A DNA stretch of 64,000 nt from an uncultured Candidatus Saccharibacteria bacterium (GTDB lineage Bacteria > Patescibacteriota > Minisyncoccia > Phycocordibacterales > UBA9973): NCBI GenBank assembly GCA_964563715.1, contig CAZLXA010000001.1, positions 33,613 through 97,612 on the forward strand. Direction: 5' to 3'. The notes beneath the pieces were generated by a model that searched no databases, was not told where the DNA came from, and saw only the letters and a list, made by a program, of their open reading frames with translations. A program made the translations under genes and the position numbers. Shown here one piece after another: positions 28,039 to 50,573 of this stretch. The stretch's first letter is position 1. Each line of letters opens with the position of its first letter.

Positions 28039-29034
28039 ATGTCAAGCCCAAATAAAACAATTAAAGACGAGGGGTTTTTAGACCAAACTCTAAGACCAGA
28101 GGTCTGGTCAGAGTATATTGGCCAAGAAAATATTAAAGCAAATCTAAAAATTCTTCTAACCGCCGCCGAAGAACGATCTCACCCGGCTGAACATATTCTT
28201 TTTTATGGTCCACCAGGACTCGGCAAAACAACACTTGCTCATTTGATTGCCAAAGAAACTAGGCGCCAAATAAAAATTACTTCCGGACCAGCAATTGAAA
28301 AAGTTGGAGACCTTGCTTCGATTCTAACTAATCTTGCTCCAGGTGATATTGTTTTCATTGATGAAATTCATCGCTTAAATAAAATGGTGGAAGAAATTTT
28401 ATATCCAGCTATGGAATCTGGTGTTCTTGATATTATTATTGGTAAAGGCCCATCAGCGAGAACGATTCAACTTGAGCTGCCACCTTTTACTTTGATTGCG
28501 GCAACAACTCGAATTGCACTCCTTTCCTCTCCCCTTCGTTCCCGATTCTCAGGTGGAGTTTTTCGTTTAGAATTTTATAGTCATGATGAAATTAAAAAAA
28601 TTCTTTCTCGTTCAGCTAAAATTTTAGGCGTAGAATTAGATAATGAAGCACTCGATGAAATATCCAAAAGAGCTCGTTTTACTCCTCGAACAGCCAATTA
28701 TTTTTTGAAACGCTGTCGTGATTACGCCCAAGTAAACAAAACCCCTCTATCAAAAGAGTCAGTCAAAAAAGCTTTAGCTTTACTTGAAATCGACGAGCTT
28801 GGTTTATCATCATCAGACAGAAGAATTTTAGATATTATTATTTCAAAATTCGGTGGTGGCCCTGTTGGTTTAAAAACCATAGCGGCTGCTACAAGTGAAG
28901 AAGAAGCCACAATTGAAGAAGTGGTTGAACCATATTTAATTCAACTTGGTTTACTTGACCGTACCACTAGAGGACGCGTTGTAACAAAAAAGGGTTATGA
29001 GCATTTGGGGTATGATAAAATAATTACGAATTAA
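28039..29034 (+). CDS. ruvB: Holliday junction DNA helicase RuvB
   Basis: RPEVWSEYIGQE, Walker A GPPGLGKTTLA, Walker B VFIDEIHRL, sensor LIAATTR. Confidence 0.9.
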   Translation: MSSPNKTIKDEGFLDQTLRPEVWSEYIGQENIKANLKILLTAAEERSHPAEHILFYGPPGLGKTTLAHLIAKETRRQIKITSGPAIEKVGDLASILTNLAPGDIVFIDEIHRLNKMVEEILYPAMESGVLDIIIGKGPSARTIQLELPPFTLIAATTRIALLSSPLRSRFSGGVFRLEFYSHDEIKKILSRSAKILGVELDNEALDEISKRARFTPRTANYFLKRCRDYAQVNKTPLSKESVKKALALLEIDELGLSSSDRRILDIIISKFGGGPVGLKTIAAATSEEEATIEEVVEPYLIQLGLLDRTTRGRVVTKKGYEHLGYDKIITN

Positions 29035-29052
29035 TAATTACGAATTACGAAT
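29022..29052. repeat. AATTACGAATT-type repeat spanning the ruvB stop and the ruvC start
   Basis: ATTACGAATTAATAATTACGAATTACGAATG; the TAA stop of ruvB and the ATG of ruvC are embedded in the motif. Confidence 0.6.
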
Positions 29053-29536
29053 GAAAATACTCGCAATTGATCCAGGATTTGAAAGAGTTGGAATAGCAAT
29101 TATTGAAAAAACAAATCTGAATAAAGATATTCTTGTTTATTCGAATTGTTTTAAAACAAAAGCCAATATTATTTTCCCAGAAAGGTTAAAAAATATCGGC
29201 CTGGAATTAGAAAATATTATTAAAAAATATAAACCCAAAGCTCTGGCGATTGAAAAACTTTATTTTACGACCAACCAAAAAACTGTTATGGGTGTTTCCG
29301 AAGCTCGTGGGGTTATGGTCTACATTGCGGCTAAAAATAATCTAGCAGTTTATGAATACACTCCCCCACAAATAAAAGTGGCAGTCACTGGCTACGGTAA
29401 AGCAAGTAAAGAAAATGTTATGTCTATGGTTCCAAAACTAATTGATATTAAGACTAAAATAAGTTCCGATGATGAGTTGGATGCTATTGCTATAGGATTG
29501 ACATGCCTTGCGTGTGAGAAGTTTTCCACAGCCTAA
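29051..29536 (+). CDS. ruvC: Crossover junction endodeoxyribonuclease RuvC
   Basis: MKILAIDPGFERVGIAIIE; RNase H-fold acidic residues; 161 aa. Confidence 0.85.
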   Translation: MKILAIDPGFERVGIAIIEKTNLNKDILVYSNCFKTKANIIFPERLKNIGLELENIIKKYKPKALAIEKLYFTTNQKTVMGVSEARGVMVYIAAKNNLAVYEYTPPQIKVAVTGYGKASKENVMSMVPKLIDIKTKISSDDELDAIAIGLTCLACEKFSTA

Positions 29537-29590
29537 AAACTCTTGCAAAGAAAATAATATTTTGATACAAATAATGCATTATAAATTATC

Positions 29591-29779
29591 ATGTTTATTA
29601 TGAGCTATATTGATGACGAAGAATTAAAAATTGATATCGATGAGGAAGAAGATGAAGACCTTCCTGAAGATATTAGTGACGAAGAAGATTTAAATGGATT
29701 GTTGGATGACGATTTGTTAGACGACGATCTAATTGATGATGATGATTTAAAAATAGTTGATGACACTATAGATGAATAA
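29591..29779 (+). CDS. Highly acidic 62-aa peptide (about 60% Asp/Glu), hypothetical
   Basis: MFIMSYIDDEELKIDIDEEEDEDLPEDISDEEDLNGLLDDDLLDDDLIDDDDLKIVDDTIDE, with its own terminator at 29784-29813. Confidence 0.4.
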   Translation: MFIMSYIDDEELKIDIDEEEDEDLPEDISDEEDLNGLLDDDLLDDDLIDDDDLKIVDDTIDE

Positions 29780-29783
29780 AAAA

Positions 29784-29813
29784 ATCCTCCGATATACTCG
29801 GAGGATTTTTTTA
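29784..29813 (+). terminator. Rho-independent terminator
   Basis: ATCCTCCG-ATATACT-CGGAGGAT followed by a T-run. Confidence 0.65.
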
Positions 29814-29821
29814 TTTTATAT

Positions 29822-31027: not shown

Positions 31028-31067
31028 ATTCTATACTTTACCATAAAAGTATCATTAAAAGAATATA

Positions 31068-33578: not shown

Positions 33579-33834
33579 TATCTAAAAAAATATTGTCGGG
33601 AGAAATAATTTTTAATTTATTTAAAATATTGTTTTTGTGCATCATAATCTCGCTACGAAACATTGGAGACCCGGATATATATATAATACCGTTTTTTATT
33701 TTTATTGAATCTTTCGCAACTGGATGATGAATTTCACCGGAAATTATTTCTACAATAATTTCTTTTATTACTTCTTTTTGATAAATTAATTTTTTAAATT
33801 TATCTAGAAAATTTGTAATATGATTATAATCCAT
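33571..33834 (-). CDS. DUF721-like small protein downstream of dnaN
   Basis: 87-aa ORF placed immediately after dnaN in the dnaA-dnaN operon. Confidence 0.4.
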   Translation of the reverse strand: MDYNHITNFLDKFKKLIYQKEVIKEIIVEIISGEIHHPVAKDSIKIKNGIIYISGSPMFRSEIMMHKNNILNKLKIISPDNIFLDIK

Positions 33835-33850
33835 GTTTTTTTGAATTATA

Positions 33851-33887
33851 ATTATTAATTCGTAATTATTAATTCGTAATTATTTTT
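33851..33887. repeat. AATTCGTAATT-type repeat at the dnaN stop
   Basis: ATTATTAATTCGTAATTATTAATTCGTAATTATTTTT. Confidence 0.6.
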
Positions 33888-34983: not shown

Positions 34984-35190
34984 ATATGTTATTAATTATC
35001 TTATAAATACTTATTACTACTATTAGACCTGTTAATATGTGGATTACGATATGACTCAATTAAACTAACGACATTTTTATTTTTATTTTTTAAAAATTTT
35101 ATTTATTTTGTGAATTACTTTTAATTTTTTAATAAATGATTATTTTTCCACATTTATTATTTTTATAAACATAACTTTTCCACAGGTTTA
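34984..35190. promoter_or_regulatory. Candidate oriC segment (dnaA-dnaN spacer) with DnaA-box-like 9-mers and an AT-rich unwinding stretch
   Basis: TGTGGATTA at 35038-35046; TTTTCCACA at 35144-35152 and 35176-35184 (TTATCCACA consensus, 1 mismatch each); A/T tract at 35080-35140. Confidence 0.55.
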
Positions 35191-36555
35191 TTATTTAAAC
35201 ATAATTCTAATTTTTTCTATCTCTTGTAAAAGTGAAGGGTCTGTCTTTAAATCACTTTTAATTTTTAAATGAGAGTGAATGACGGTCGTATGGTCTCTAT
35301 CCCCCAGTTTTTGTCCTATTAGTGGATAAGAAATATTAAAATCTTCACGGAGTAAATACATTGCTACCTGACGAGCCTTAACTATTTCTTTTCTTCTGGT
35401 TTTCTCATAAATTACTTCTTCAGCTAGGCCGTATTGATCTGCGACAATTTTAACAATATCCTTAATTGCCACGGTCTTTTTTGGTCTAATATTATTTCTA
35501 ATTAGGGTTTTTATTTCAGCCAGGGTTAATGATTTGTTTTTTAGTTGAGATTGGCAAATAACAGTATTTAGACTACCCTCAAGTTCACGGATGTTCCCTT
35601 CTAGTGATTCAGCTAGATAAGAAACTATCTCTGGTTCAATAATACAATTTGTTGATTCAAACTTAGCTTTAATAATTGCGACCCGAGACTCATAATCTGG
35701 TTCAATAATTTGAACTGTCATCCCAGAGGCAAAACGAGACTGGAGTCTGTCTTCTAAGCCTTGAATAAAGTTTGGGTGTTTATCGGAAGAGAAAATTATT
35801 TGTTTGTTATTTTCATACAAAGTATTAAATAAATGGAATAATTCTTCTTGTGTTTTATCTTTACCGGAAATAAATTGGATATCATCCATTATGATTACAT
35901 CGTATTTTCTATATTTTTCCTTGAAAGCATTAGGGTTTTTATTTTGGATTGAATTAATATAATCAATTGTAAATCTTTCCAAGCTAACATAATAAACTTT
36001 TTTTAGTGGGTGTTTTATTTTTATAGTATTGCCTATGGCTTGGATCATGTGGGTCTTCCCTAGCCCTGTTCCCCCGTAGACAAAAAATGGATTATAGTTT
36101 TGACCGGGGTTAGTGATGATGGCTTGGGCAACAGCGTAAGCAAGTTCGTTAAAAGGCCCAACAATAAATGAATTAAAGTTATATTTTGGGTTTAAATTAT
36201 CATCTTTATTTATATATAAATCGTTTAACGGTAATTCTTTGTTGATATTAACCACAGTTTTTGGTATAGCGTTTTCATTGCCCTTATTATTTGAATCGTT
36301 TTTTAGTTCTTGTTTATGAATAATGTATTCAACATTACGAACACTTTCTTCATTTCCAATTAAAGTTTTTAGAATTAGTTTATGAAATTTATTATAAAGC
36401 CAGTCTTTGACAAATTCATTTGGAACGCCAACAATAATAATTCCAGCGTCTTCCTTTATTATGGTGGTGTTTTTAAACCAAGTAGTAAAATTAGCCTTTG
36501 AAATGCTTAGTTCGATTTCCGATAAACACTTGCTCCAGAGCTCTTTTGTATTCAT
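35191..36555 (-). CDS. dnaA: Chromosomal replication initiator DnaA
   Basis: AAA+ core with Walker A GGTGLGKTH, Walker B IIMDDIQF and sensor motifs; C-terminal DNA-binding domain VKARQVAMYLLRE. Confidence 0.9.
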   Translation of the reverse strand: MNTKELWSKCLSEIELSISKANFTTWFKNTTIIKEDAGIIIVGVPNEFVKDWLYNKFHKLILKTLIGNEESVRNVEYIIHKQELKNDSNNKGNENAIPKTVVNINKELPLNDLYINKDDNLNPKYNFNSFIVGPFNELAYAVAQAIITNPGQNYNPFFVYGGTGLGKTHMIQAIGNTIKIKHPLKKVYYVSLERFTIDYINSIQNKNPNAFKEKYRKYDVIIMDDIQFISGKDKTQEELFHLFNTLYENNKQIIFSSDKHPNFIQGLEDRLQSRFASGMTVQIIEPDYESRVAIIKAKFESTNCIIEPEIVSYLAESLEGNIRELEGSLNTVICQSQLKNKSLTLAEIKTLIRNNIRPKKTVAIKDIVKIVADQYGLAEEVIYEKTRRKEIVKARQVAMYLLREDFNISYPLIGQKLGDRDHTTVIHSHLKIKSDLKTDPSLLQEIEKIRIMFK

Positions 36556-36672
36556 CCCGTTTAGAAGCAGGTTGCGGTCAATTTTGTGATTAACCTAAAC
36601 TACTTTTATTAATATAAATAATAACTTTTTATAAAAATCCTGTTAATTTTCGCGACCGCGGCTTCTAACGGG
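36556..36672 (-). repeat. Palindromic start-abutting element, copy D, in the dnaA-rpmH spacer. On the minus strand it reads CCCGTTAGAAG ... CTTCTAAACGGG|ATG(dnaA).
   Basis: Arms at 36662-36672 and 36556-36567; the dnaA start codon (rc of 36553-36555) directly follows. A DnaA-box-like TGTGGATAT lies at 36746-36754. Confidence 0.55.
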
Positions 36673-36804
36673 ATTCATAGTCGTTATTATACATTGTTTT
36701 TTAAAACTGCCACAATGAAATATCTTAATTAACATGTTAATATCGTGTGGATATGTTTATTACTTACCGTTGCATTTTTGTCAATTATAGTATATATTTT
36801 CAAT

Positions 36805-36945
36805 ATGTCTCAAACATATCAACCCAACAAAAGAAAAAGAGCCAAAACACACGGCTTCCTTGTCAGAACCAAAACACAAAATGGTAGAAAGGTAAATACT
36901 GCTCGCCGCCGAAAGGGCCGAGCAAATGTCTCAATTAAAAAATAA
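36805..36945 (+). CDS. rpmH: 50S ribosomal protein L34
   Basis: [46 protein letters not shown]. The track ORF 36745-36945 includes this; true start at ATG 36805. Confidence 0.9.
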
Positions 36946-36946
36946 C

Positions 36947-37279: not shown

Positions 37280-37288
37280 AATACTTGT

Positions 37289-37364
37289 CCCGTTAGAAGA
37301 CTAAAGCTTTATTTATTATTAGTTAAAATAAGTATAAATTTCAAGATTTAATACTTCTAACGGG
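37289..37364 (+). repeat. Palindromic start-abutting element, copy C (CCCGTTAGAAG ... CTTCTAACGGG|ATG of yidD)
   Basis: Arms at 37289-37299 and 37354-37364; ATG at 37365. Confidence 0.55.
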
Positions 37365-37568: not shown

Positions 37569-37634
37569 AATTATTTTTGGAAGTCCGACTTCCAAAAATT
37601 TTGAAATTTAGGGTTTTTAAGATACAATAGAACA

Positions 37635-38381: not shown

Positions 38382-38386
38382 ACTGT

Positions 38387-38851
38387 ATGCATAAAGATAA
38401 AATAAAAGAAGCCATAGAGCAAATATTTAAACATACTGCCTGCACCATCACGAAGTGTGATTTTTCTGAAGAAGGAAATATTCTTTGGTGTAGTATTGAA
38501 ACACCTGATTCTCATTTTATTATTGGCCGAGATGGTGAAACACTGAGGTCACTAAATCATATTGTTCAGAGAATTGTTGAGAAAGGAATTGTTGAAGAAG
38601 AAAAAGGGCCAAGTTTATTTATTGATGTGAACGGTTATCAAAAAAAGCGTTTTGAAAATTTAAAAAATATTGCTCACATGATGGCTGAAAGGGCTCGTTA
38701 TTTTAAAAGTAATATTGAAGTAGACCCTATGCCCTCTTATGAAAGACGCATTATTCATATGTTTTTAGAAGGAGATAAAAACATTAAAACTGAATCAGAA
38801 GGTTATGGGCCAAATCGAAGAGTGGTGATTAAGTATGTTGAGAATAATTAA
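38387..38851 (+). CDS. khpB: Jag/KhpB RNA-binding protein (KH plus R3H domains)
   Basis: C-terminal R3H motif MPSYERRIIHMFLEGDKNIKTESEGYGPNRRVVIKY, downstream of yidC. Confidence 0.8.
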   Translation: MHKDKIKEAIEQIFKHTACTITKCDFSEEGNILWCSIETPDSHFIIGRDGETLRSLNHIVQRIVEKGIVEEEKGPSLFIDVNGYQKKRFENLKNIAHMMAERARYFKSNIEVDPMPSYERRIIHMFLEGDKNIKTESEGYGPNRRVVIKYVENN

Positions 38852-38852
38852 A

Positions 38853-38951
38853 AATTACGAATTACGAATTACGAATTAAAAAAATACTTGAAACGAAGTT
38901 TCAAGTATTTTTTGTTTCACATCCGTAATTCGTAATTATTAATTCGTAATT
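38853..38951. repeat. Inverted pair of AATTACGAATT-type repeats around a bidirectional terminator hairpin (38878-38914)
   Basis: AAATTACGAATTACGAATTACGAATT ... hairpin ATACTTGAAAC-GAA-GTTTCAAGTAT ... CCGTAATTCGTAATTATTAATTCGTAATTAAT. Confidence 0.65.
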
Positions 38952-40452: not shown

Positions 40453-40456
40453 AAAA

Positions 40457-42115: not shown

Positions 42116-42116
42116 A

Positions 42117-43112
42117 TTATAAATTTAATTTTAATTGATTATTAATTTTTTGAAATAATTCATTCATATTTTGTATAACTAAACTTATTGTTGCATATCC
42201 CCCACGTGATGTTGGTCGGACTGTGAGTTCGTTTTTCTTTGAGGGGGTTTGAATATTATTACCATTTATTTTCCAATTATAAGTAAAATTAGTTTCATTG
42301 TTTTTTAAAGTTAAAAAGTATGGTTCAGCAATGAGAGTTACTTCATCTTCAAACATATCAGCTTCTTTTTCTAAAGCTTGATTATAAAGTATTCCTTCAG
42401 TTGGGGATTTTTTATAAAAAACTATTTTAGGACTGTAAGTTGGAATTTGTATTGTTTTTTCAGCCGTATAGCGTCCATCAACAGAAGAAGCAGCAACGGT
42501 AATTTCATTTTTTGTATCAAACATACTGTTTTTAAAAATATATGAATTTTTATTATAGCCGGACGCATCTAAAACTGCACTATTATTGTTTTTCCAATTA
42601 TAAGTAATACTTCCACTACCGGATTTTATAGTATCGGTATTTGGAATTGCTACAGCCTTAATTAAGGAACCACTAGATGGAAGAGATTTACCCTTATAAA
42701 AAGGTGGAGTATAACCATTGACTGATTCCCACATAATTTCGATTTCCGAAGGAGTGATAGCGATTCTTTTATTGATTGTCGTCATTGAACCTACCGGAGT
42801 AATAGTGATATCAAAAATATTAGCCGTATTAGGTCCGGAAGCTTTAAATGAATAACTTGTTTTTCCAATTCCAGAGAGGACAGTATTACCAGATGTTTTC
42901 CAAACTATAATTGCTTTATTTAAATCAGTCGCATAACTAGTCAAAGTTATTGTTACATCTTCATATGGAGCAGGATTATTTGGATTAACCTCAACACTCA
43001 ATTCATTATCTTGAACTTCGATTTGCATCTCAGCTAAAGAATTATACGGCCAATTTAAGATGGTCAAAACAAAAATCAAAACTAGAAAAAATTTTATTTT
43101 TATTAATTTCAC
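42117..43112 (-). CDS. Secreted beta-rich protein, hypothetical
   Basis: Signal peptide MKLIKIKFFLVLIFVLTILNWPYNSLA; 331 aa. Confidence 0.45.
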   Translation of the reverse strand: MKLIKIKFFLVLIFVLTILNWPYNSLAEMQIEVQDNELSVEVNPNNPAPYEDVTITLTSYATDLNKAIIVWKTSGNTVLSGIGKTSYSFKASGPNTANIFDITITPVGSMTTINKRIAITPSEIEIMWESVNGYTPPFYKGKSLPSSGSLIKAVAIPNTDTIKSGSGSITYNWKNNNSAVLDASGYNKNSYIFKNSMFDTKNEITVAASSVDGRYTAEKTIQIPTYSPKIVFYKKSPTEGILYNQALEKEADMFEDEVTLIAEPYFLTLKNNETNFTYNWKINGNNIQTPSKKNELTVRPTSRGGYATISLVIQNMNELFQKINNQLKLNL

Positions 43113-43155
43113 TATGTTTATTATATAATAACTTTCACCTCATAACAACAGGCCT

Positions 43156-44991
43156 TTAACCGTTGTTTGCGGCCAATAATTCCCCTTTGGCTTTTTTAAT
43201 CGCTAAAATTTGTGACGGGTCGGAAGTAATGATTTGATCTTCAGTATAGGAGGCAATAGTCTTAATAGCCACATGCTTTAAGCCAGCAAAGAATATTCCC
43301 TCGCCAACATTAGCTTCGAGTAATAAATATTTTTCTTCCTCAGTCAAATTAAATGTTTTTTGTAAAACATCAACGGTTGAAGGAGATTGTTTTAATAGTA
43401 ACTGAATAGAAGAATTGGTCACGATCGGTATACCATAAGCACTTTTCATGAAGTCACCAACATCTTGAGTAATTGTCGCTAAGCCTAAATAATATTTTCG
43501 GCCTCTTTTTGCAATAGAGTAAAGAAAAGATGCTGTATCTTCGGATTTCATCATCCACCAAGCTTCATCAACAACAAGTAAGCGTTTCTTGATATTTTTA
43601 CGAACGGCATTCCAAATATAATGAGTAATGATATACATAGCAATTGGTTTTAATTCATCTTCCATGTCGCGAACTGAAAATACAATAAACTTACGATTAA
43701 TATCAATATTTGAAGGTTGGTTGAGGAATGAAGACCATGAACCATGAGTATATTTGGTTAGTCTTTGCATTAATGATTCACTTCCCTCCATCCCAGAGAG
43801 AATAACTTCAAAGTCCGATAACATTGGCGGTTCAATATTTCTAAAATCAGAATCAGCGGTAATATCTTTAAGAGCATAAGTTTCAGTAATAGCTGTATCA
43901 ATAATAGAATCCTCTTCAGGAGTTAAGCCTCCCAACATAATTCTAAATAATCCAACTAAGCTAATAGTATTAGAGCGTAAAACATCGGCTGGGGTTTCAT
44001 CGCCTGTTGGAATTGGTAAATCAAATGGATTAATGTGATGGTCCGATGATAGAGCAATATTAAAACATCTTCCACCAATAGCTTCGGCTAAATATTCATA
44101 TTCTCGTTCAGGGTCAATAACAATAACTTCAGTATCAAACATCAAAGTTCGAATAATTTCTAATTTTGTGGCATATGATTTACCAGCTCCGGATGTGGCG
44201 AAAGTAATAGAATTGTAATTTGGAAGTGAAAATCGGTCAAATAAAATAAGACTTGAGTTGTGACGATTTACTCCATAAAGAATTCCTTTATCTTCTGTTA
44301 AGTCAAAAGAAACGAATGGAAAAATACTTGAAAGTGGTTCAGTGTTTAATTTTTGATGAATGCCTAAAATGTCTGTTCCAAGTGGAATGACGCTTTTAAA
44401 GCCTTCATTTTGTTGAAATAGAGCTGGTTTTAGATAAATTAATTTTGATTCGAGTAACGATTTAATTTCATTTTCAATTTTAAATAAATCATTATCATCA
44501 TTAGCATAAACTGTAATATAAAGACCAACATCAAACATTTTTTCTTGGGCTTGCATTAAATTGTCTCGCAAATCCTCTAAATCTTTATAGGCCGTGTCTA
44601 GCATTGGATCACGAACAAGACCTTTTGATTCACGGATAGCAATTTGACTTTGGACTTCAGCCACTTTTTTCTGGAAAGACCTCAATATTTCAGCCGTTTC
44701 AATTGGGTGGATAAAAATAGAAACATCGAAAACTTTATCCAAATTGATAATTGGTGAAAACCAATTATCAGAAAGATAGCGAGGATATGAAATAACAAAA
44801 AATGTTCGGACGATTTTATCTCCCAAGTTAAGTGATTTAGGTGTTATCTGTAAAGCAGACGGAGCAATGATGTCTTGGAGTTCTAGAGTTGCCGCTTTAT
44901 AGACTTCATTCGGCAAAATTGGCATCATGCCACTTCTATTATTAGTGTCATTTGTTTTCCCTTTTCCAAATAATGATGAAAGTATACTCAT
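43156..44991 (-). CDS. VirB4/TrbE/CagE-family T4SS ATPase, C-terminal (ATPase) part
   Basis: Walker A FATSGAGKSYA, Walker B LLVVDEAWWMM (DEAW hallmark), and the DPEREY motif. Confidence 0.75.
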   Translation of the reverse strand: MSILSSLFGKGKTNDTNNRSGMMPILPNEVYKAATLELQDIIAPSALQITPKSLNLGDKIVRTFFVISYPRYLSDNWFSPIINLDKVFDVSIFIHPIETAEILRSFQKKVAEVQSQIAIRESKGLVRDPMLDTAYKDLEDLRDNLMQAQEKMFDVGLYITVYANDDNDLFKIENEIKSLLESKLIYLKPALFQQNEGFKSVIPLGTDILGIHQKLNTEPLSSIFPFVSFDLTEDKGILYGVNRHNSSLILFDRFSLPNYNSITFATSGAGKSYATKLEIIRTLMFDTEVIVIDPEREYEYLAEAIGGRCFNIALSSDHHINPFDLPIPTGDETPADVLRSNTISLVGLFRIMLGGLTPEEDSIIDTAITETYALKDITADSDFRNIEPPMLSDFEVILSGMEGSESLMQRLTKYTHGSWSSFLNQPSNIDINRKFIVFSVRDMEDELKPIAMYIITHYIWNAVRKNIKKRLLVVDEAWWMMKSEDTASFLYSIAKRGRKYYLGLATITQDVGDFMKSAYGIPIVTNSSIQLLLKQSPSTVDVLQKTFNLTEEEKYLLLEANVGEGIFFAGLKHVAIKTIASYTEDQIITSDPSQILAIKKAKGELLAANNG

Positions 44992-45638
44992 TTTAGTTTT
45001 ATACCCTGACTAATATCCCCAGGATTGAATGTTTTATAAAAAAGTTCGACAACTTGGTCAGTAGTTAATTCTGTTGTTCTGATGCCGACTCGTCCTAGAC
45101 CACTGATGATAACTCCAACCCGTTGGTCTAATTGAGTTCTTTTTTCTTCAAATGAAGCTAAATCCATTGCTTTTTTAGTATTTTCAATTTGTTTTTTTTG
45201 CGATCCCCCACCAAGCAAACTATCAACCATACCATCACTTGATTTAATAATTGTTGGACTGTAAGGCACAACAATAAAAAATGTTTTGGTCATAATATTA
45301 ACTTCATCAGTAAAAGATTTAATAAAATCAATATATTCTTTGGTTTGAATTTTTAGAAGTGGTTCAACTTGGGCTTTGAGTCTTTCTTCGAGCGATAAAA
45401 GATAATGTCTAATATCTAAACGGCGAGACTGCATACATATTTGAGTTGGAAAATCGAGTCCATTAATGAAATTTTGAAATTCATTAATAATGGCGGCTTG
45501 TTCATCGGAGGATTTTAAAGATAAATTTAAAGATGAAGCAAGTAATACCGCCCGAAGACCACCGTCTTTTAAAACGATGATACCATTTCGCACTTCTTTA
45601 ATTGGAACGAATTCTTGTGAACTTTTTGCACTAATCAT
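44988..45638 (-). CDS. VirB4-family N-terminal domain encoded as a separate ORF (ATGA stop/start overlap with the ATPase part)
   Basis: IKEVRNGIIVLKDGGLRAVLLASSLNLSLKSSDEQAAIINEFQNFIN resembles the N-terminal region of Gram-positive-type VirB4 homologues; 216 + 611 aa add up to full VirB4 length. Confidence 0.55.
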   Translation of the reverse strand: MISAKSSQEFVPIKEVRNGIIVLKDGGLRAVLLASSLNLSLKSSDEQAAIINEFQNFINGLDFPTQICMQSRRLDIRHYLLSLEERLKAQVEPLLKIQTKEYIDFIKSFTDEVNIMTKTFFIVVPYSPTIIKSSDGMVDSLLGGGSQKKQIENTKKAMDLASFEEKRTQLDQRVGVIISGLGRVGIRTTELTTDQVVELFYKTFNPGDISQGIKLK

Positions 45639-45646
45639 ATGTATAA

Positions 45647-45788
45647 TTAATTACGAATTACGAATTAATGATTACGAATTAAAAACTAATAACATTATAT
45701 CATAATTATGAACACTTTCACCCCTCTTTTTGTTTCTTAGTTTTAAACCCGTCTTTCATTCGTAATCCGTAATTATTAATTCGTAATT
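45647..45788. repeat. Inverted pair of AATTACGAATT-type repeats between VirB4-N and the PrgI-like gene
   Basis: AATTAATTACGAATTACGAATTAATGATTACGAATT (45647-45682) and CATTCGTAATCCGTAATTATTAATTCGTAATT (45757-45788). Confidence 0.65.
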
Positions 45789-45800
45789 GACCAAAACAAG

Positions 45801-46208
45801 TTACTGATTGTTTTGGTCCTTAACATCTAAATTCCAAGACAAATCTTTTAGTTTATTTTCTGTCGTCATTGGGACGATTGAAACAAGAGGCATAGTTATT
45901 TCCTCTTCTTTTTTAACCTCAGGTTTTGCTAATCTTTGTTTCCAGATATAAAGCTTATTTGAAACAAAATAATTTAGTCCAGCCTGGAGGTAGAAAATAA
46001 AAGGTTTTTCATTTATTTTATAAAAAACTAAAGCAAGAGATAGCCCAACTACAGGGAGTATAAAAATAATAGCAAGCCATAAAGGCAGAGCTTTATATAA
46101 AACAAAAGAGGCACCAGCACCGCCTGCTAAATAAGCGAATTGGCGAAAGGTAAAAGGGCCAAATAATTTGTCCTCGATATCAATAAATTGTGGGACTTTA
46201 AATTGCAT
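45801..46208 (-). CDS. PrgI/TcpE/VirB3-like small two-TM T4SS membrane protein
   Basis: MQFKVPQFIDIEDKLFGPFTFRQFAYLAGGAGASFVLYKALPLWLAIIFILPVVGLSLALVFYKINEKP; located immediately upstream of VirB4, as in Gram-positive T4SS operons. Confidence 0.6.
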   Translation of the reverse strand: MQFKVPQFIDIEDKLFGPFTFRQFAYLAGGAGASFVLYKALPLWLAIIFILPVVGLSLALVFYKINEKPFIFYLQAGLNYFVSNKLYIWKQRLAKPEVKKEEEITMPLVSIVPMTTENKLKDLSWNLDVKDQNNQ

Positions 46209-46216
46209 TTGAGAAT

Positions 46217-46247
46217 AATTACGAATTACGAATTAATAATTACGAAT
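46217..46247. repeat. AATTACGAATT-type repeat
   Basis: TAATTACGAATTACGAATTAATAATTACGAATG. Confidence 0.6.
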
Positions 46248-46256
46248 GTGGGATGC

Positions 46257-46607
46257 TTATGATTTTGAAGTTTTTTGAATTGCTCCAATTATTCTTAATA
46301 TTTCTTCACAATCAAATATAAGTGTATCAGATTGTTGCTTGTTTAGAAAACCACTATCTGTTAAAAGGTGTAGCCAGTAAAGAGTCTCCCTTGCTTCTTT
46401 ATAAGAAATACTTATTTTTGAGATAAAATCATTTTTTGATTGTGCCCCAATTGCTTCTTCTATGTTTGCACCAATTGATGTTCCAGAACGAATTAATTGC
46501 TTTGAAAGAATGAATTCTTTTTTGTCTTTAGTTAGTTCCTGATATATTGTTATAATTTTAAGACTAAAATTATAACTTTTTTCCTTAATGATATTATCTG
46601 ATTTCAT
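46257..46607 (-). CDS. Four-helix-bundle protein (TIGR02436 family; the 23S rRNA intervening-sequence protein family)
   Basis: LIRSGTSIGANIEEAIGAQSKNDFISKISISYKEARETLYWLHLL is the family signature. Confidence 0.8.
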   Translation of the reverse strand: MKSDNIIKEKSYNFSLKIITIYQELTKDKKEFILSKQLIRSGTSIGANIEEAIGAQSKNDFISKISISYKEARETLYWLHLLTDSGFLNKQQSDTLIFDCEEILRIIGAIQKTSKS

Positions 46608-46639
46608 TCGTAATTCGTAATTATTAATTCGTAATTACC
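46606..46639. repeat. AATTCGTAATT-type repeat that includes the start codon of the four-helix-bundle gene
   Basis: CATTCGTAATTCGTAATTATTAATTCGTAATTACC. Confidence 0.6.
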
Positions 46640-47334
46640 TAAAACTCCTCTCGATAAGGGTCAATTTTTGGTTTACTATGATCTGTGACAGAGTGTCCGC
46701 TTGAAGTTGAAGCTTTCATTTTATCTTCAAAAACATTTTTGGGAATGTATTTTAATTCCTCATCTTGTTTAATAGGAGCTAGCTCTTGTTTTGGTATCTC
46801 ATTCGTAATTCCTAATTCTTCATTCCTAATTATCTTTCCTTGTTCCTCATTCTTAATTCTTAATTCGTCATTCGTAATTGTCCTCGCGTATGGTGGCAAT
46901 GGCACTTCGTCATCCTTGATGATGAATTCTTTATTGTTTGTTGTAGGTGATTCATTGTCTGTAGCTGGAATACCAATTTCTGTATTACTGCTGTTTAAAA
47001 ATTCAACATTTAATTCAAAAGTATTAACAAGATCATCTTTAATATCTTTTAAAATAGTAACATCTAGATCATCTAATATTTTATTAAATGTTTCTTCATT
47101 AAGTTTTAAATCTTTTTTAAGGGTTAAAACATAATCTTCTAGATGGATAATACTAAGTAGGACTAGTGTTGTTTCTGTTGCTAGGGTTTCGGTTTGCTCT
47201 TCATTAAGAGAATATTTAGTAGAAATATTTTTTAATATATCAATCCATTGCATAGAGTAAAAAACAACCTGAGCTTCTTTAGGTAGCCTCTGAAAATATT
47301 TTGATATATTTTGTTTTAATAATTCTTTCTCCAT
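46639..47334 (-). CDS. Hypothetical protein whose C-terminal coding sequence is built from degenerate copies of the intergenic TTCGTAATT repeat
   Basis: 231 aa. Nucleotides 46800-46880 (CATTCGTAATTCCTAATTCTTCATTCCTAATT...TTAATTCGTCATTCGTAATT) encode ITNDELRIKNEEQGKIIRNEELGITNE. Confidence 0.45.
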   Translation of the reverse strand: MEKELLKQNISKYFQRLPKEAQVVFYSMQWIDILKNISTKYSLNEEQTETLATETTLVLLSIIHLEDYVLTLKKDLKLNEETFNKILDDLDVTILKDIKDDLVNTFELNVEFLNSSNTEIGIPATDNESPTTNNKEFIIKDDEVPLPPYARTITNDELRIKNEEQGKIIRNEELGITNEIPKQELAPIKQDEELKYIPKNVFEDKMKASTSSGHSVTDHSKPKIDPYREEF

Positions 47335-47353
47335 TTATTTTTTTACTTTATTT

Positions 47354-50300
47354 TTAATGATGAACACCATCGTTCCCGTGTCCTACTTTTTTTGTATCTC
47401 CACCACTATGCGATTCTGGGAGTTCAATTTTCATATCTTTTACTGCATCCTTAAATGTACTTTTTAGATCTGTTAAGAAATCACCTTCTATTTTTACAGT
47501 ACCGTGACTCAATCCTGAGCTTTTAAGTATTCCACCTCGCACACCAGTGGCAACTGCTGCAATTAAACCAACTGGTATTTTTGTAAATACACTCGCTCTT
47601 TTGTCTACAGAAGCTTCTGAAAGTTTTCTTAGATCCCATGTTCCTGTATTTGCTTTTGAAAATACTCGAGTAAAAGCATTAATACCAGCTGAAGCTTTAT
47701 TGATTTCATCATCAAATTTATCAATTGCTTTTGATTTAGCAAGATCTTTTACTTCTTTCTTTTGTTCCAAGCTTAAATCTTTAAGTTTACCTGTATTTGA
47801 GTCTACTACATTTAGTTTTGGATCAACTGCAAGGTTTCTAGGATCATTTCTATAGGCTCTCTCCGCATCATCTAAGTGTTTTGAGTAGTTTTCTTTTCCA
47901 ACATTATCCTGAACAATTTTTTGTTGTTCCCCCGAAAGCTCACTCCACTTAAAGCCCTTAAATCCAGCTTTTTCAATATCTGCATCTGTGTGAGCTCTAC
48001 TTCTGTCTACTTCATTTGTTTTATTTTGTGCAACATTTAGTTTGGAACCCAGTGCAGTAAATGGATTAAGTGTGGTAGATTTTATACCTGCCCCAGCTGC
48101 ATAATTTTTCCAGTCAGGTTTAGCCCCAGATCTTTGGTTTGGAGGAGTTGAATTCCATTTTTCTAAATCTTTGTTAAATTGAATTTTTGTATTACTACGT
48201 TTTGTTGCCCCGTCTGTTTTGGATAGTGCAGATAACCCTCCACCTATTACTTTTCTTCCAATCAATGCTCCACCTAATGCTGCACCCCCAAGGGCTATAC
48301 CACCAGCTGCGGCGAGTCCATTTGTAATTGATTGGCCCATTTTTCCAGACATATCTTTTGCTATATCTTTGGCTTTCATTAAGAGAACCATGATAAATAT
48401 AAATGGAACGATAACAGAAATAACAAAAGTCATACCATCATTAACATCATTTGCTTTTACCAAACTTAATCCTTTTTCTAGGAAAGCAATAATTAAATAC
48501 ATAAAGAATATAAATATTGGAGCCAAAAATGCCAGTTTGAGGGTTTCTGGCCACCATTTTTTCCAACCAACCATTTCCATGTCTTGTAAAGATGGAACCG
48601 TGTAACTAAAAAAGACAAAAGGCGAGAAGATCATAGCAAACCATAAACCTATAACTCTAGTAACAAATATCAATCCCACAGATAAAAATACGATTATTCC
48701 AACAATATTTACAGCTGTTGCAAGTAAAGTAATTAGGATAAATGCACCAACGCCTAAGCTCCCTTGTGTATCTTCTGCTGTACTTGTTTGATTTGTGACT
48801 TTATCTTTTATTACAACTGCTTTTGTCCCATTAATAATAAGATTTTGAGGATTTACTTTATTAACAATAGCAGCCGAAAGGGGGATCTCTCCATTTGGTC
48901 CAATTTTTAGGCCGGCTGTCCCAGCGGTACTATTCTGGGTAATTTTTATTGAATCTGAGTTATAAAAAACACGGGCTAAGATATTTGAAGCATCAATAAT
49001 TACTTGGGTGGTAAATAAACTAAAATTAATAAGGAGCCCAATGATAATTACATTGATAATCATTTCTTTAGTTTTAACACTATGAAGATTTAAAATAGTT
49101 CCGAAGGCAATATAAAGTAGTATGAAAATAAAGAACATATTACAAAAATCTCGAACAATACCCCAGCCTTCTACCACGAAAGGAGTCCGATATGATTCAT
49201 CTTGCACAGAGTAATGAAAAGTAAAATCAAGAAAAGTTCCAGCCAGGGCAAATACATAGGATGTTGGAACAAAAAAGACATAATAAAACATTTGAGCCAT
49301 ACAACCAGCAAAAGAGCCATCGATTGGATGAGCAAAAACACACAAAGGAAGTTGGTCAGAACCAGTTGGTGTCCCTGCAGTAGTTTGCATTGTCGTTTTT
49401 GAAAGACAATCACTTACTACTATTCCAGAACCACTTGATTCTTCGTTTTGAGCCCTTGCATCTCTAACATTTTTACACGAGTCTTCGGTTGGAAAATTTG
49501 CAGAATGTTCTACTGAACCATTTGTGTTTGTTAGATCAAAATAATAAACCGTTGTTGTTGAAGAAGAACCCGCGGTTTGATCTGTTCCAGTTGCTGTTCC
49601 TAGGCTCCATGATGTTTCATCACAATCTCCTCCTAACCCTTTACACTTAAAAATAAAATGATCTGATTCATCTGTTTTATTAGAGGTGTAGTGAGTAATT
49701 ATTTGTCCAGTTGAACTTGTTCTGATATAGAAATCAACAATGATATCACAATCTCCTCCAGAACAAGATGTTTCACCAGTAGTTAAAGCAAAAGATAAAT
49801 TATCTGAATTTATTGTGCTACGAGGAATTGATAAAACTGTTGTATTGGTTGTTCCACTGGCTTGGATATTTAGTTCAGAAAGTAATTGCCCTTGACATCC
49901 AGTGGTGTTTATATATAGAGTTGCATTGTCTGGTCTTATTGGTTTGGTTGATGTGGGGGGGGTGAATAAAACATTTGTTATTTTACAGTCAGTCTGAGCT
50001 GGAAGTTCAGTTCCGGTAGTACTTTTTAAAAGCCATGGGTCTGTACACCCAGTAGTCTTACATTCATAAGCCAAAGATTCATCAGATTGAGATGTGGTTA
50101 AAATACTAGTGCCTGCGTCATTTAAAATTTCAAGTTTAATTCTTATTTGATTACAATCACCACGCTCACAGGTTTTTTCACCAGTATGAAAAGTAAATGA
50201 AAAATTATCTTCTGCTATTCTTTGGACTGGAAGCTCTGGAGAACCAAAAGCTACAGATGGCCCAGGAAAAGCTAAGATATTAACTCTAGCTAACTTTCCA

Positions 50301-50515
50301 ACACAACCAGTTGTTCCGACACTGTAGATAACTTCTTCTGGTTTTGGGGTATTGGTTGAATCTGGAAGAGGCTTAGGGCTAGTAAAAGATTCAGTTAAAA
50401 TTACACAATTCGCTGCTTCAGCTTTTTCAATTTTCGAACCATCATTAACACTAAAAGGCGCAAACAGTTGCACAATGATTGTCAGTATTAATATGTATGG
50501 CAAAAATTTTTTCAT
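47354..50515 (-). CDS. Large polytopic membrane protein, VirB6/TrbL-like core with a duplicated Cys-rich N-terminal ectodomain and Gly-rich C-terminal region
   Basis: Signal peptide; two ~150-aa Cys-containing repeats (TGC.G.L...N...; GD CD); at least 6 TM helices between residues ~400 and 700; GLAAAGGIALGGAALGGALIG. Confidence 0.5.
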   Translation of the reverse strand: MKKFLPYILILTIIVQLFAPFSVNDGSKIEKAEAANCVILTESFTSPKPLPDSTNTPKPEEVIYSVGTTGCVGKLARVNILAFPGPSVAFGSPELPVQRIAEDNFSFTFHTGEKTCERGDCNQIRIKLEILNDAGTSILTTSQSDESLAYECKTTGCTDPWLLKSTTGTELPAQTDCKITNVLFTPPTSTKPIRPDNATLYINTTGCQGQLLSELNIQASGTTNTTVLSIPRSTINSDNLSFALTTGETSCSGGDCDIIVDFYIRTSSTGQIITHYTSNKTDESDHFIFKCKGLGGDCDETSWSLGTATGTDQTAGSSSTTTVYYFDLTNTNGSVEHSANFPTEDSCKNVRDARAQNEESSGSGIVVSDCLSKTTMQTTAGTPTGSDQLPLCVFAHPIDGSFAGCMAQMFYYVFFVPTSYVFALAGTFLDFTFHYSVQDESYRTPFVVEGWGIVRDFCNMFFIFILLYIAFGTILNLHSVKTKEMIINVIIIGLLINFSLFTTQVIIDASNILARVFYNSDSIKITQNSTAGTAGLKIGPNGEIPLSAAIVNKVNPQNLIINGTKAVVIKDKVTNQTSTAEDTQGSLGVGAFILITLLATAVNIVGIIVFLSVGLIFVTRVIGLWFAMIFSPFVFFSYTVPSLQDMEMVGWKKWWPETLKLAFLAPIFIFFMYLIIAFLEKGLSLVKANDVNDGMTFVISVIVPFIFIMVLLMKAKDIAKDMSGKMGQSITNGLAAAGGIALGGAALGGALIGRKVIGGGLSALSKTDGATKRSNTKIQFNKDLEKWNSTPPNQRSGAKPDWKNYAAGAGIKSTTLNPFTALGSKLNVAQNKTNEVDRSRAHTDADIEKAGFKGFKWSELSGEQQKIVQDNVGKENYSKHLDDAERAYRNDPRNLAVDPKLNVVDSNTGKLKDLSLEQKKEVKDLAKSKAIDKFDDEINKASAGINAFTRVFSKANTGTWDLRKLSEASVDKRASVFTKIPVGLIAAVATGVRGGILKSSGLSHGTVKIEGDFLTDLKSTFKDAVKDMKIELPESHSGGDTKKVGHGNDGVHH

Positions 50516-50539
50516 CCTAATTTATTTTTCTCTCCACCC

Positions 50540-50573
50540 AATTCGTAATTTGTAATTATTAATTCGTAATTAC
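50540..50573. repeat. AATTCGTAATT-type repeat ~30 nt upstream of the VirB6-like gene start
   Basis: AATTCGTAATTTGTAATTATTAATTCGTAATTAC. Confidence 0.6.

Follow-up and report, generated by a model that had tools for sequence, protein, structure and literature searches.

What kind of sequence recurs at the stop and start codons of one gene after another? The question is raised by a 64-kb window (the whole stretch of DNA that was analysed), in which an earlier note had described a dispersed repeat family concentrated at gene boundaries and had read it either as a REP/MITE-like repeat or as operators organising expression of the locus. Heptamer repeats have repeatedly been reported as an unexplained excess in bacterial intergenic DNA (PMC4679880, PMC4692102). 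Here we propose that the sites are probably the arms of an operon-embedded, horizontally spread hairpin element of the intervening sequence (IVS) type.

A 32-nt module of tandem heptamers

Exact matches to AATTCGTAATT number 18 in the window (0.16 expected), a count reached by none of 100 shuffles, and 31 (5.5 expected) when up to one mismatch is allowed; the exact copies are all confined to 29022-50571. While the repeat family is thus real, its unit is not the 11-mer that had been proposed. TRF gives period 7 at every window site, and every site consists of a single module of 32 nt with sharp bounds, AATTACG-AATTAAT-AATTACG-AATTACG-AAT(T/G), in which four and a half 7-nt units follow one another in tandem. 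A scan with a 31-nt consensus (up to nine mismatches) returned nine intergenic sites and a degenerate stretch in ORF 46639-47334 and nothing else, compared with 0-1 matches in Markov-simulated sequence. The suggested bias toward gene boundaries is borne out: arm midpoints are intergenic in nine of nine cases, where intergenic DNA makes up 7.2% of 28039-52907 (P ~5e-11), and the outer ends of the arms are at -13 to +14 nt relative to the gene boundaries. With tandem direct 7-nt units, two to six per set, near start or stop codons, the sites have the arrangement of intergenic heptamer SSRs. The window contains one complete element, two hairpins that lack a gene, three arms standing alone and one translated relic.

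No known RNA family accounts for the repeats: no Rfam 15 covariance model fits them, a search at gathering thresholds returned only three tRNAs in the window, and allowing E up to 5 across 38700-47000 gave no credible match. Integron attC sites were also considered and rejected, the arms having no GTTRRRY/RYYYAAC core and the scanned window ORFs no integrase. No rRNA genes were found in the window, and a literature search found no paper containing ACGAATTACGAATT or TTCGTAATTCGTAA.

Single arms and a translated array

A single arm with the exact consensus AATTACGAATTAATAATTACGAATTACGAATG occupies the ruvB/ruvC junction (29022..29053, + strand). As had been recognised, one copy holds both codons, providing the last codons of ruvB with its TAA stop (29032-34) and the ruvC ATG (29051-53). 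This arm is kept at the same junction in two relatives (L201, L202) and missing in two other genomes (L200, L203), in which ruvB and ruvC are separated by an adh_short gene. The N-termini of RuvC homologues contain no translated arm, and their length differences are C-terminal. The second single arm (33851..33881, - strand; two mismatches, order ACG-AAT-ACG-AAT) sits in the spacer that separates the dnaN stop (33886-88) from the start (33834) of an 87-aa ORF. It does abut dnaN, its end being 2-4 nt from the stop, and an identical copy is present in a relative with 96-98% identity (L063). The third (50541..50571, - strand; one mismatch, an ACA unit) is situated between the stop of a CARDB-domain gene (50580) and the start of a 1053-aa gene (50515). 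Its upstream position had been correctly given, the distance being 24 nt and not ~30, while the label 'VirB6-like' for the 1053-aa gene (47354-50515) finds no support, as the gene has no Pfam and no NCBIfam match.

Translation of degenerate copies within ORF 46639-47334 was confirmed: a degenerate heptamer array, ITNDELRIKNEEQGKIIRNEELGITNE, lies at 46794..46879 (- strand) inside this frame, and the L118 ortholog carries VINNEELIIKNE at the matching place. The array is a relic or in-frame copy of an arm.

A complete element around an IVP gene

The complete element (46217-46636) consists of an arm, a gene and an inverted arm, and is located between two protein-coding genes. The gene (46257..46607, - strand) encodes a 116-aa four-helix-bundle protein of the family PF05635 (23S_rRNA_IVP)/TIGR02436, named 23S rRNA intervening-sequence protein and hereafter IVP (Pfam PF05635, E = 3.5e-28; TIGR02436, E = 2.9e-31; PDB 2RLD, an entry with five chains, E = 7.6e-47). 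Structures of this family have been solved, and we know of no function or enzymatic activity for it. The family is large, with 10,415 clusters (50% identity) matching the window's copy; PADLOC defence models gave no match to this protein, and an exact-protein look-up returned no record.

The upstream (5') arm (46605..46636, - strand) is an exact consensus copy that starts 2 nt past the stop of ORF 46639-47334, and the IVP start codon (46605-07) is formed by its final three bases, in agreement with the claim that a copy includes the start of the four-helix-bundle gene. The downstream (3') arm (46217..46248, + strand; order ACG-ACG-AAT-ACG) lies between the IVP stop (46257-59) and the start of a PrgI-like gene (46208). 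The two arms pair in the RNA minimum-energy fold (MFE -90 vs -62 kcal/mol for shuffles; z = -5.75), and synteny of the IVP gene is conserved in L052, L042, L117 and L118. The element stands directly behind its host gene in the same orientation, its arms touch or overlap the stop and start codons of the neighbours, and the arm carries its own TAA and ATG.

As far as sequence goes, this construction matches a 23S rRNA intervening sequence, but it sits between protein-coding genes of an operon. The 23S IVS of Coxiella contains an S23p ORF, a terminal-inverted-repeat stem of 28 bp in which RNase III cleaves, and 2-3 tandem GACAGAT heptamers ahead of the ATG (PMC4990558). Our element shares with the IVS of Coxiella burnetii and Leptospira (PMC4990558) a PF05635/TIGR02436 ORF filling the loop of a long terminal-inverted-repeat hairpin (stem of 24-31 bp here), tandem heptamers that lie directly upstream of the start codon and reach it, the lack of a promoter together with co-orientation with the host transcription unit, and a sporadic, horizontally transferred distribution. 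It differs in its place, since in the window no copy is inserted in a 23S (or 16S) rRNA helix; instead of rRNA helix 25/45, the sites are between protein-coding genes (a T4SS-like operon here, accB/accC in Xanthomonas). The heptamer is AATTACG and not GACAGAT, and the arm also occurs ORF-less, as short hairpins and single copies at gene junctions. Cleavage by RNase III is experimental in Coxiella, whereas here the duplex is a predicted one.

Hairpins without a gene

The left arm of the first gene-less hairpin (38846..38877, + strand) begins within the stop codon of a jag/khpB-like gene (38387-38851), and the right arm (38921..38951, - strand; one mismatch) overlaps the stop codon of a PG-binding-domain gene (38950-40542). 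Sequence and fold indicate a 16-bp A/U-flanked stem-loop in the loop between them, AAAAAAATACTTGAAAC-GAA-GTTTCAAGTATTTTTT (38879..38915), which resembles a bidirectional terminator between convergent genes; a consensus terminator scan, in which three or more G-C pairs are needed, did not flag it. The arms of 38846-38951 pair in the predicted fold on both strands (z = -7.9 and -9.8).

The second gene-less hairpin (45649-45788; z = -5.3 and -5.6 in the predicted fold) has its left arm (45649..45683, + strand) 10 nt from the start codon (45638) of a VirB4 N-terminal-part gene, to which it is antisense, and its right arm (45758..45788, - strand; one mismatch) 12 nt past the stop of the PrgI-like gene (45801-46208). 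No terminator was found in its 74-nt loop (45684-45757), which carries a promoter-like extended -10-like sequence, TGATATAAT, on the minus strand, conserved in L118. The description of inverted pairs flanking a terminator hairpin therefore fits the first pair and not the second. The interiors of the two hairpins are unrelated to each other, and the arms of the second are found at the orthologous position in L052, L042, L117 and L118.

The module in other genomes

The earlier note had called for a search of related genomes. With the exact core 21-mer as query across genomes, at least 116 matching loci were identified, belonging to nine or more phyla (Bacteroidota, Patescibacteria, Cyanobacteriota, Pseudomonadota, Desulfobacterota, Acidobacteriota, Chloroflexota, Ignavibacteriota and Armatimonadota), cultured isolates included, and often as hairpins. 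The same unit in distant lineages is again a property of heptamer SSRs. Conservation spans exactly 32 nt with a sharp drop at both ends, the unit order ACG-AAT-ACG-ACG is fixed (123 copies, at least nine phyla), and the module stays A+T-rich inside G+C-rich genomes, in unrelated gene contexts.

These properties bear on the idea that the heptamers arise by polymerase slippage in A+T-rich spacers, where IVP genes would insert preferentially. Many bacteria have an excess of heptamer SSRs (cited in PMC4692102), the heptamer copy number differs among Coxiella strains (PMC4990558), and across IVP loci (see below) the period is fixed while the heptamer sequence is free and its type only weakly follows IVP phylogeny. 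Nevertheless, the fixed unit order and sharp bounds of the module would not be expected from independent slippage, and its persistence in G+C-rich genomes also speaks against such an origin, which we consider very unlikely.

The distribution is still harder to reconcile with a family of operators for a regulator of the type IV secretion-like locus. It is correct that seven of the nine window copies lie inside the secretion-like gene cluster, but others occupy the housekeeping junctions of ruvB/ruvC and dnaN, several are past stops between convergent genes, the sequence adjoins unrelated genes in at least nine phyla, and the locus yielded no DNA-binding regulator. The copies are thus not restricted to promoter sites, to one regulon or to one lineage, and this reading seems to us scarcely credible.

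Among the matches listed there are 35 convergent arm pairs, with bimodal loop lengths: 24 loops measure 10-52 nt and eight 355-444 nt. An IVP gene is present in seven of the eight long loops, the exception being the L082 pair, which encloses a complex non-coding region. An IVP gene abuts an arm at 12 of the 116 loci among the matches listed, a link in favour of an IVS-type element, although the small share (~10%) speaks against it, as do three of the nine window arms, which are single and incapable of a local hairpin. No rRNA genes lie near the arms at the 116 loci listed. As for vectors, the 32-mer had no megablast match among plasmids, perhaps owing to low-complexity masking. Phages are not an obvious vehicle, as a scan of viral contigs found three single arms without IVP and phage records yielded two IVP matches.

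Arms are retained at orthologous positions even though the flanking genes are merely 68-79% identical (DNA), a pattern that suggests constraint at the level of the host, or homogenisation, rather than a restless parasite and so speaks against a mobile IVS-type element. In L117 and L118, all four arms of the locus have changed together from ACG to AAG. Such behaviour is what a host cis-regulatory RNA motif might show, the arrays, in mRNA leaders and between cistrons, being bound after transcription by a regulator or by the ribosome (S1, Csp, CsrA-type, or IVP itself) and tuning translation or stability, with IVP autoregulated through those sites. Conservation far better than that of the flanks and a concerted change, expected after a change in a trans factor, would both suit this model, as would arms that abut the start codons of ruvC, IVP, the 87-aa ORF and the 1053-aa gene, the absence of any target-site duplication or transposase found, and the published parallel of TAACTGA repeats just upstream of start codons (PMC4679880). 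However, to such a factor the two arms would present different sequences, AAUUACG and CGUAAUU, although they form inverted, co-varying pairs. Many arms are past the stops of convergent genes, with no gene downstream, and single arms between co-directional genes show a sense bias of just 14:7. Moreover, an exact 32-mer in G+C-rich genomes of unrelated phyla calls for horizontal spread and not regulation alone. We therefore judge the regulatory model rather unlikely.

Heptamer arrays beside IVP genes

In the reverse direction, 88 IVP loci were sampled, with an array defined as at least three in-phase units. A period-7 array is present on at least one side of the IVP gene in 81 of the 88 loci, on both sides in 51 and upstream in 66, whereas periods of 5, 6, 8 and 9 give 0-1 and random segments 7.6%. 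Aligned arms in these loci have a median of 27 nt and 84% Watson-Crick pairs. The dominant triplet is identical in both arms at 39 of 76 loci (21 expected; maximum 31 in 2000 permutations), and arms match within a locus better than in permuted pairings (p = 6e-6). IVP has the orientation of the upstream gene in 73 cases and the opposite one in 8.

The same layout with other heptamers is found in finished replicons of isolates: Bernardetia (AGTGATT), Euhalothece (CAGTTAC/CACTGGT), Treponema (GGAAAGT/CCGCTCT), Nostoc punctiforme (GTCGGAG) and Planktothrix (CGTAAAT). In Xanthomonas, the IVP gene (XCC0516 family) lies between accB and accC within an inverted pair of GGGAATC-type arms, which supply stop and start codons of the neighbouring genes (accC).

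Transition mismatches between paired arms comprise 66 G:U and 65 A:C, with no wobble bias. Selection on RNA pairing is for this reason not claimed, and the missing signature of selection for a stem in the sense transcript is a point against an IVS-type element. Another is that heptamer type follows IVP phylogeny weakly (nearest neighbour of the same type in 39 of 71 vs 24 expected; mean identity 0.65 vs 0.63). Given this weak association, the idea that the IVP protein reads the variable triplet was dropped.

Comparison with mobile repeats

REPs are palindromic and lineage-specific and make no target-site duplications; in the REPIN-RAYT system, a single-copy Y1 transposase gene lies between inverted short repeats that are also dispersed intergenically as doublets and singlets. 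The family described here likewise has a gene between inverted repeats, dispersal as hairpin doublets and singlets, and no target-site duplications, but the gene encodes a 116-aa four-helix bundle, and the repeat is a tandem heptamer array common to several phyla. Correia/ERIC-type MITEs and RPEs (Rickettsia palindromic elements) are small, bounded by inverted repeats, co-transcribed with their neighbours and conserved in their interiors; Correia elements are cut by RNase III and have TA duplications, and RPEs can be read through as protein. Inverted-repeat bounds are shared with these elements, and the relic in ORF 46639-47334 is translated as RPEs can be, but here the interiors are unrelated and the arms alone are conserved.

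An ordinary REP or MITE family would owe the mobility of its arms to a transposase acting in trans (RAYT/IS200-like or other), with IVP as a trapped passenger. Copies that are dispersed, intergenic and often inverted doublets would be compatible with this, and with 64 kb of genome in view the transposase may lie elsewhere. Against it, an arm taken by itself consists of direct tandem repeats and differs from its reverse complement, whereas a REP unit is an imperfectly palindromic 20-40 nt. Of the 35 pairs, three are flanked by direct repeats of 4 nt or more, with 2.9 expected by permutation, so that target-site duplications are not apparent, and in 26 pairs with short or intermediate loops the loop sequences are unrelated. 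A Pfam scan of 30 window ORFs gave no RAYT/Y1 or other transposase-family match, the flanked gene being the four-helix bundle. Finally, because heptamer arrays flank 81 of the 88 sampled IVP genes whatever the heptamer, IVP is not a chance passenger. Of the original REP/MITE-like description, dispersal, frequent inverted pairing and spread between genomes stand, while palindrome, RAYT or transposase, target-site duplication and shared interior do not; as the defining tests of REP and of MITE fail, the copies are not REP/MITE proper but are tied to the PF05635/TIGR02436 gene. A standard REP/MITE family is in our view quite improbable.

A model for the proposed IVS-type element

For the IVS-type element that we favour, the following course seems the likeliest. 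The element would be transcribed together with its host operon, and its two arms would pair into a 24-31-bp duplex bracketing an ORF, a terminator or a promoter. By analogy with the experiment on the Coxiella IVS, this duplex would be an RNase III substrate, and its processing could be the reason that the insert is tolerated inside operons and rRNA without blocking them. The family may move horizontally between phyla and multiply within genomes as ORF-less arms, possibly spread by a DNA-level process tied to the IVP gene and analogous to REPIN-RAYT. A mechanism of mobility is what the model lacks, as there is no target-site duplication, no conserved interior and no IVP enzymatic activity known.

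On a broader scale, it is possible, though we put this forward tentatively, that the TIGR02436/PF05635 protein and period-7 arrays form one pan-bacterial system comparable to RAYTs and REPINs, in which a pentameric protein recognises, maintains or propagates arms of ~4-5 heptamers. If so, the 23S IVS, TAACTGA repeats, the GGGAATC repeats of Xanthomonas, cyanobacterial STRR-type repeats and the general heptamer excess would be facets of one element.

Two of these families can be compared directly. The GGGAATC heptamer is dispersed 186 times in the Xanthomonas genome (Rehm 2015, PMC4692102). It and the Nostoc GGGGA(C/T)T repeats (PMC4692102) resemble the present family in forming intergenic arrays, mostly of four units, with 70-75 convergent pairs per genome and conservation between the same genes in related species, but their unit is G-rich, was read as G-quadruplex forming and was not linked to a four-helix-bundle gene. 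The TAACTGA repeats of Beggiatoaceae, Cyanobacteria and Bacteroidetes are intergenic heptamer direct repeats for which a translational function has been suggested, the candidate binding proteins being S1, Csp or CsrA (MacGregor 2015, PMC4679880). Tandem 7-nt units, two to six per set, intergenic and a few nt from start codons, are common to both, as are occurrence in distant phyla and the want of a known transfer mechanism; the TAACTGA unit is different, its sets are nearly all direct and not inverted, and no gene family was linked to it (PMC4679880).

The sequences compared tie the IVP protein family to heptamer repeats, and both of these to rRNA intervening sequences, so that three descriptive puzzles become a single hypothesis open to test. 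The arms also matter for gene calling and for models of operons, because they provide the stop and start codons of neighbours (ruvB/ruvC here, accC in Xanthomonas), and a 32-nt sequence identical across at least nine phyla is a handy marker of horizontal transfer. The hypothesis supplies a checkable rule: an IVP gene should lie between inverted period-7 arrays whose unit is that of arrays dispersed in the same replicon. On the Euhalothece plasmid pEu1, the unit of the IVP arm recurs at further intergenic sites. TAACTGA-type arrays flank IVP genes both there and in L184, and they adjoin AATTACG arms in L034.

A heptameric module at gene boundaries

The earlier note described a family of repeats with an 11-nt unit, concentrated at gene boundaries. 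The family is real: within the 64-kb window the 11-mer AATTCGTAATT has 18 exact matches against 0.16 expected, and 31 against 5.5 expected when one mismatch is allowed. The unit, however, is 7 nt rather than 11, since Tandem Repeats Finder gave a period of 7 for every site, and the 11-mer therefore spans one heptamer and half of the next. In the AATTACG orientation every site carries one module, AATTACG-AATTAAT-AATTACG-AATTACG-AAT(T/G), hereafter called an arm, and five of the nine window copies end in ATG. Scanning the window with a 31-nt consensus (at most nine mismatches) returned nine intergenic sites and one degenerate stretch within the ORF 46639-47334, and nothing else; simulated sequence gave zero or one match. 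All nine arm midpoints are intergenic in a region (28039-52907) where the intergenic share is 7.2% (P ~5e-11). The finding is statistically overwhelming and more interesting than its local description implies. With three exceptions, the site coordinates and gene relations first reported were correct. As read from the sequence, TAA occurs in one sense frame and all three antisense frames of the arm, so that ruvB is able to end inside an arm and neighbouring genes terminate at or within one.

Three copies are single arms, located at the ruvB/ruvC junction (29022-29053), after dnaN (33851-33881) and before a 1053-aa gene (50541-50571), whose label "VirB6-like" is without support. The remaining six are arranged as three convergent pairs. 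That at 38846/38951 encloses an A/U-flanked stem-loop with convergent genes on either side, the pair at 45649/45788 encloses 74 nt lying between the PrgI-like gene and the gene for the N-terminal part of VirB4, and the pair at 46217/46636 encloses a complete gene (46257-46607, minus strand). All three predicted hairpins beat shuffled sequence by far (z -5.3 to -9.8). The proposal that inverted pairs flank a terminator hairpin holds for the first pair and fails for the second, where the loop (45684-45757) contains a promoter-like site between the two arms (45694-45721, minus strand; extended -10 TGATATAAT). Its TATGATATAAT stretch is kept in the related locus L118. An internal promoter serving the VirB4 genes therefore probably lies between the arms. 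The VirB4-like ATPase (43156-45638, minus strand) is itself split between two ORFs with a 4-nt overlap, a 216-aa N-terminal part (44988-45638) and a 611-aa TraG P-loop part (43156-44991), an arrangement also found in L118.

The gene enclosed by the third pair belongs to PF05635, "23S rRNA intervening-sequence protein" (E = 3.5e-28), and matches TIGR02436, "four helix bundle protein" (E = 2.9e-31). The nearest solved structure to this protein (IVP) is 2RLD (E = 7.6e-47), with five chains per entry. Its start codon is formed by the final three bases of the upstream arm.

The module is identical across phyla

Searching for the motif in other genomes located the exact core 21-mer ACGAATTAATAATTACGAATT at a minimum of 116 genome loci. 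Among the matches listed, these represent at least nine phyla: Bacteroidota, Patescibacteria, Cyanobacteriota, Pseudomonadota, Desulfobacterota, Acidobacteriota, Chloroflexota, Ignavibacteriota and Armatimonadota. Cultured isolates among the matches listed include three Pontibacter species, Ferruginibacter, Ancylomarina, Flavobacterium cauense, Brumimicrobium, Pseudanabaena and Calothrix. The A+T-rich sequence is unchanged within G+C-rich genomes. Among the matches listed, the conserved length is exactly 32 nt across 123 copies, with a sharp fall on both sides; the core is preceded by AATT in 96-98% of copies and followed by ACGAAT(T/G).

The listed loci and the window together hold 179 arms, with 35 convergent pairs. 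Among the matches listed, loop lengths are bimodal (24 of 10-52 nt and eight of 355-444 nt, with a further three at 90-170 nt), and an IVP gene occupies seven of the eight longest. In all, such a gene adjoins an arm in 12 of the 116 listed loci, encoding proteins 46-82% identical to that of the window. The outer (AATTACG...) end of an arm mostly lies between -13 and +14 nt from a neighbouring stop or start, overlapping it in places, while the inner end faces the loop. No relatedness was found when short loops were compared with each other, nor were target-site duplications found at convergent pairs.

In two related metagenome-assembled genomes the hairpin loop holds a perfect DnaA box, TTATCCACA (L102, 3987-4033; L082, 1863-1952). 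Elsewhere the 32-nt arm falls within long ORFs (L041, L010, L045, L081, L098 and L106), where in-frame translation is expected (for example ...ELRINNYELGIK... in L041); these resemble the relic in the window ORF 46639-47334.

IVP genes are flanked by heptamer arrays

The association was examined in reverse, using 80 metagenome loci chosen irrespective of repeats together with earlier loci (88 usable IVP loci). Arrays were scored as in-phase, period-7 runs of at least three units no more than 93 nt from the IVP gene. Such an array was present on at least one side in 81 of 88 loci and on both sides in 51; control periods of 5, 6, 8 and 9 gave zero or one locus, and random segments of the same loci 7.6%. 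In 40 of 82 loci no more than 10 nt separates the end of the upstream array from the IVP start, and in 61 of 80 the downstream array begins 12 nt or less from the stop. The IVP ORF is thus the filling of the loop between the arrays. The analysis as a whole establishes the module with its boundaries and its potential to pair, its identity across phyla, its tie to the IVP gene, the orientation of that gene along with host genes, and the overlap of arms with stop and start codons of neighbours.

The variable triplet of the heptamer is not constant across IVP loci (ACG, AGG, AAG, ATG, ACT and others), and some heptamers are wholly different. The dominant triplet is the same in both arms at 39 of 76 loci, against 21 expected and a maximum of 31 in 2000 permutations, and complementarity of arms within a locus exceeds that of permuted pairs (p = 6e-6), indicating that the arms of one locus co-vary.

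IVP shares the orientation of its upstream neighbour at 73 loci (opposite at eight) and of its downstream neighbour at 59 (opposite at 18). This co-orientation with the host genes is consistent with a promoter-less insert riding on host transcription.

Three other accounts, in which the repeats are a transposase-driven REP/MITE family, products of pure slippage or an operator of the secretion-like locus, are each contradicted by specific tests, namely the IVP-array link, the 32-nt boundaries, the loops, the search for duplications and the cross-phylum distribution. A REP/MITE-like repeat and an operator family had been put forward in the earlier note.

Distant IVP genes carry unrelated heptamers

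On finished plasmids of isolates, IVP genes at 38-50% identity have arrays arranged in the same way but built of unrelated heptamers. Bernardetia has 11 copies of AGTGATT upstream and AATCACT downstream, Euhalothece has CAGTTAC upstream and 13 copies of CACTGGT downstream, and Treponema saccharophilum has GGAAAGT and CCGCTCT. In Nostoc punctiforme pNPUN01 (L207) the pair GTCGGAG and CTCCGAC adjoins an xisH-family gene; MacGregor noted a distribution common to TAACTGA repeats and XisH/XisI (PMC4679880). In Planktothrix agardhii p1 (L208), CGTAAAT and ATTTACG lie between DISARM drmD and an MmeI-type restriction-modification gene. On Euhalothece pEu1 the heptamer unit of the IVP arms recurs at other intergenic sites.

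A Xanthomonas genome contains 186 GGGAATC repeats (Rehm et al., PMC4692102). If dispersed arrays match the arms of a resident IVP gene, the Xanthomonas IVP should be flanked by GGGAATC; this prediction was set beforehand, and the gene (XCC0516 family, PDB 2GSC) is indeed flanked by GGGAATC-type arrays. The acetyl-CoA carboxylase operon of X. campestris and X. citri (L209, L211) carries the four-helix-bundle gene between accB and accC. The accB stop is followed by GGGAATC-GGGAGTG-GAGAATC-GGGAATC, and the downstream inverted array continues straight into the accC ATG.

Arms change together and mark a rearranged junction

Arms are shared with L063, a locus 96-98% identical to the window over 8 kb. 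L052, L042, L117 and L118 have the IVP gene and its four neighbouring arms, all at orthologous sites. Flanking genes there are 68-79% identical to the window (measured in L052 and L042), and the arms are conserved far above their flanks. Arm type shifts jointly: all four are AAG/CTT rather than ACG/CGT in L117 and L118, and L052 is mixed. The strongest alternative, a host post-transcriptional motif, accounts for this orthologous conservation and concerted change, but leaves the inverted pairing and the cross-phylum exactness unaccounted for.

The ruvB/ruvC arm is present in the window, L201 and L202, with a different third unit in each. L200 and L203 lack it and have an adh_short gene between ruvB and ruvC; the arm therefore marks a rearranged junction. 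A small, extremely acidic ORF follows ruvC (~29610-29795, plus strand; MSYIDDEELKIDIDEEEDEDL...); in L200-L203 it is a called gene of 52-63 aa, followed by a terminator hairpin.

Heptamer type agrees only weakly with IVP phylogeny. Arthrospira IVP genes are strain-specific with best matches in other phyla (PMC8700078), in agreement with horizontal transfer.

A probable operon-embedded relative of rRNA intervening sequences

We conclude that the element, found in a genome of the Patescibacteria (Paceibacteria/Nomurabacteria-like), is best read as an operon-embedded, non-rRNA variant of the intervening-sequence (IVS) type that also has orphan arms. In a Coxiella 23S rRNA element of like construction, RNase III cuts a 28-bp stem at the first heptamer (PMC4990558). 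By analogy, arms in the operon transcripts of the window may pair and be processed likewise; tolerance through processing would allow the element to sit between cistrons, and the IVP gene would act as partner to the arms, maintaining or spreading them. Of the transition mismatches seen between arms, 66 are G:U and 65 are A:C. This lack of G:U excess speaks against a constraint at the RNA level and suggests that the identity of the arms comes from copying or from constraint on the DNA, not from selection for RNA pairing.

IVS elements with S23p ORFs have been described apart from heptamer repeats, heptamers being mentioned in passing (PMC4990558), and the gene family is absent from the papers on TAACTGA (PMC4679880) and on GGGAATC and GGGGA(C/T)T repeats (PMC4692102). 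A survey of rRNA insertions in CPR bacteria termed the IVP protein functionally uncharacterised. Our literature search, with most subscription journals outside its range, found neither a general link between the gene family and heptamer arrays nor a paper containing the module sequence. The finding points to such a general link, joining bacterial heptamer repeats to a protein family that is large and uncharacterised.

Other features of the window

A 123-nt MITE-like insertion (36556-36678) lies exactly 5' of the dnaA start codon and is missing from L063. It has terminal inverted repeats CCCGTTTAGAAGCAGGTTGCGGTC and GCGACCGCGGCTTCTAACGGG, and a 6-bp direct repeat, ATTCAT, at both ends includes the dnaA ATG. 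Between dnaA and dnaN (35144-35204), a 32-nt repeat present twice with the DnaA-box-like TTTTCCACA marks a candidate replication origin. The 775-aa CARDB-domain gene of the secretion-like locus (50580-52907) contains a 156-nt tandem repeat (51848-52424; 3.8 copies, 76% match), and a UvrD/Rep-type helicase gene (58228-61314, minus strand) carries an intein, with PF14890 at residues 276-631.
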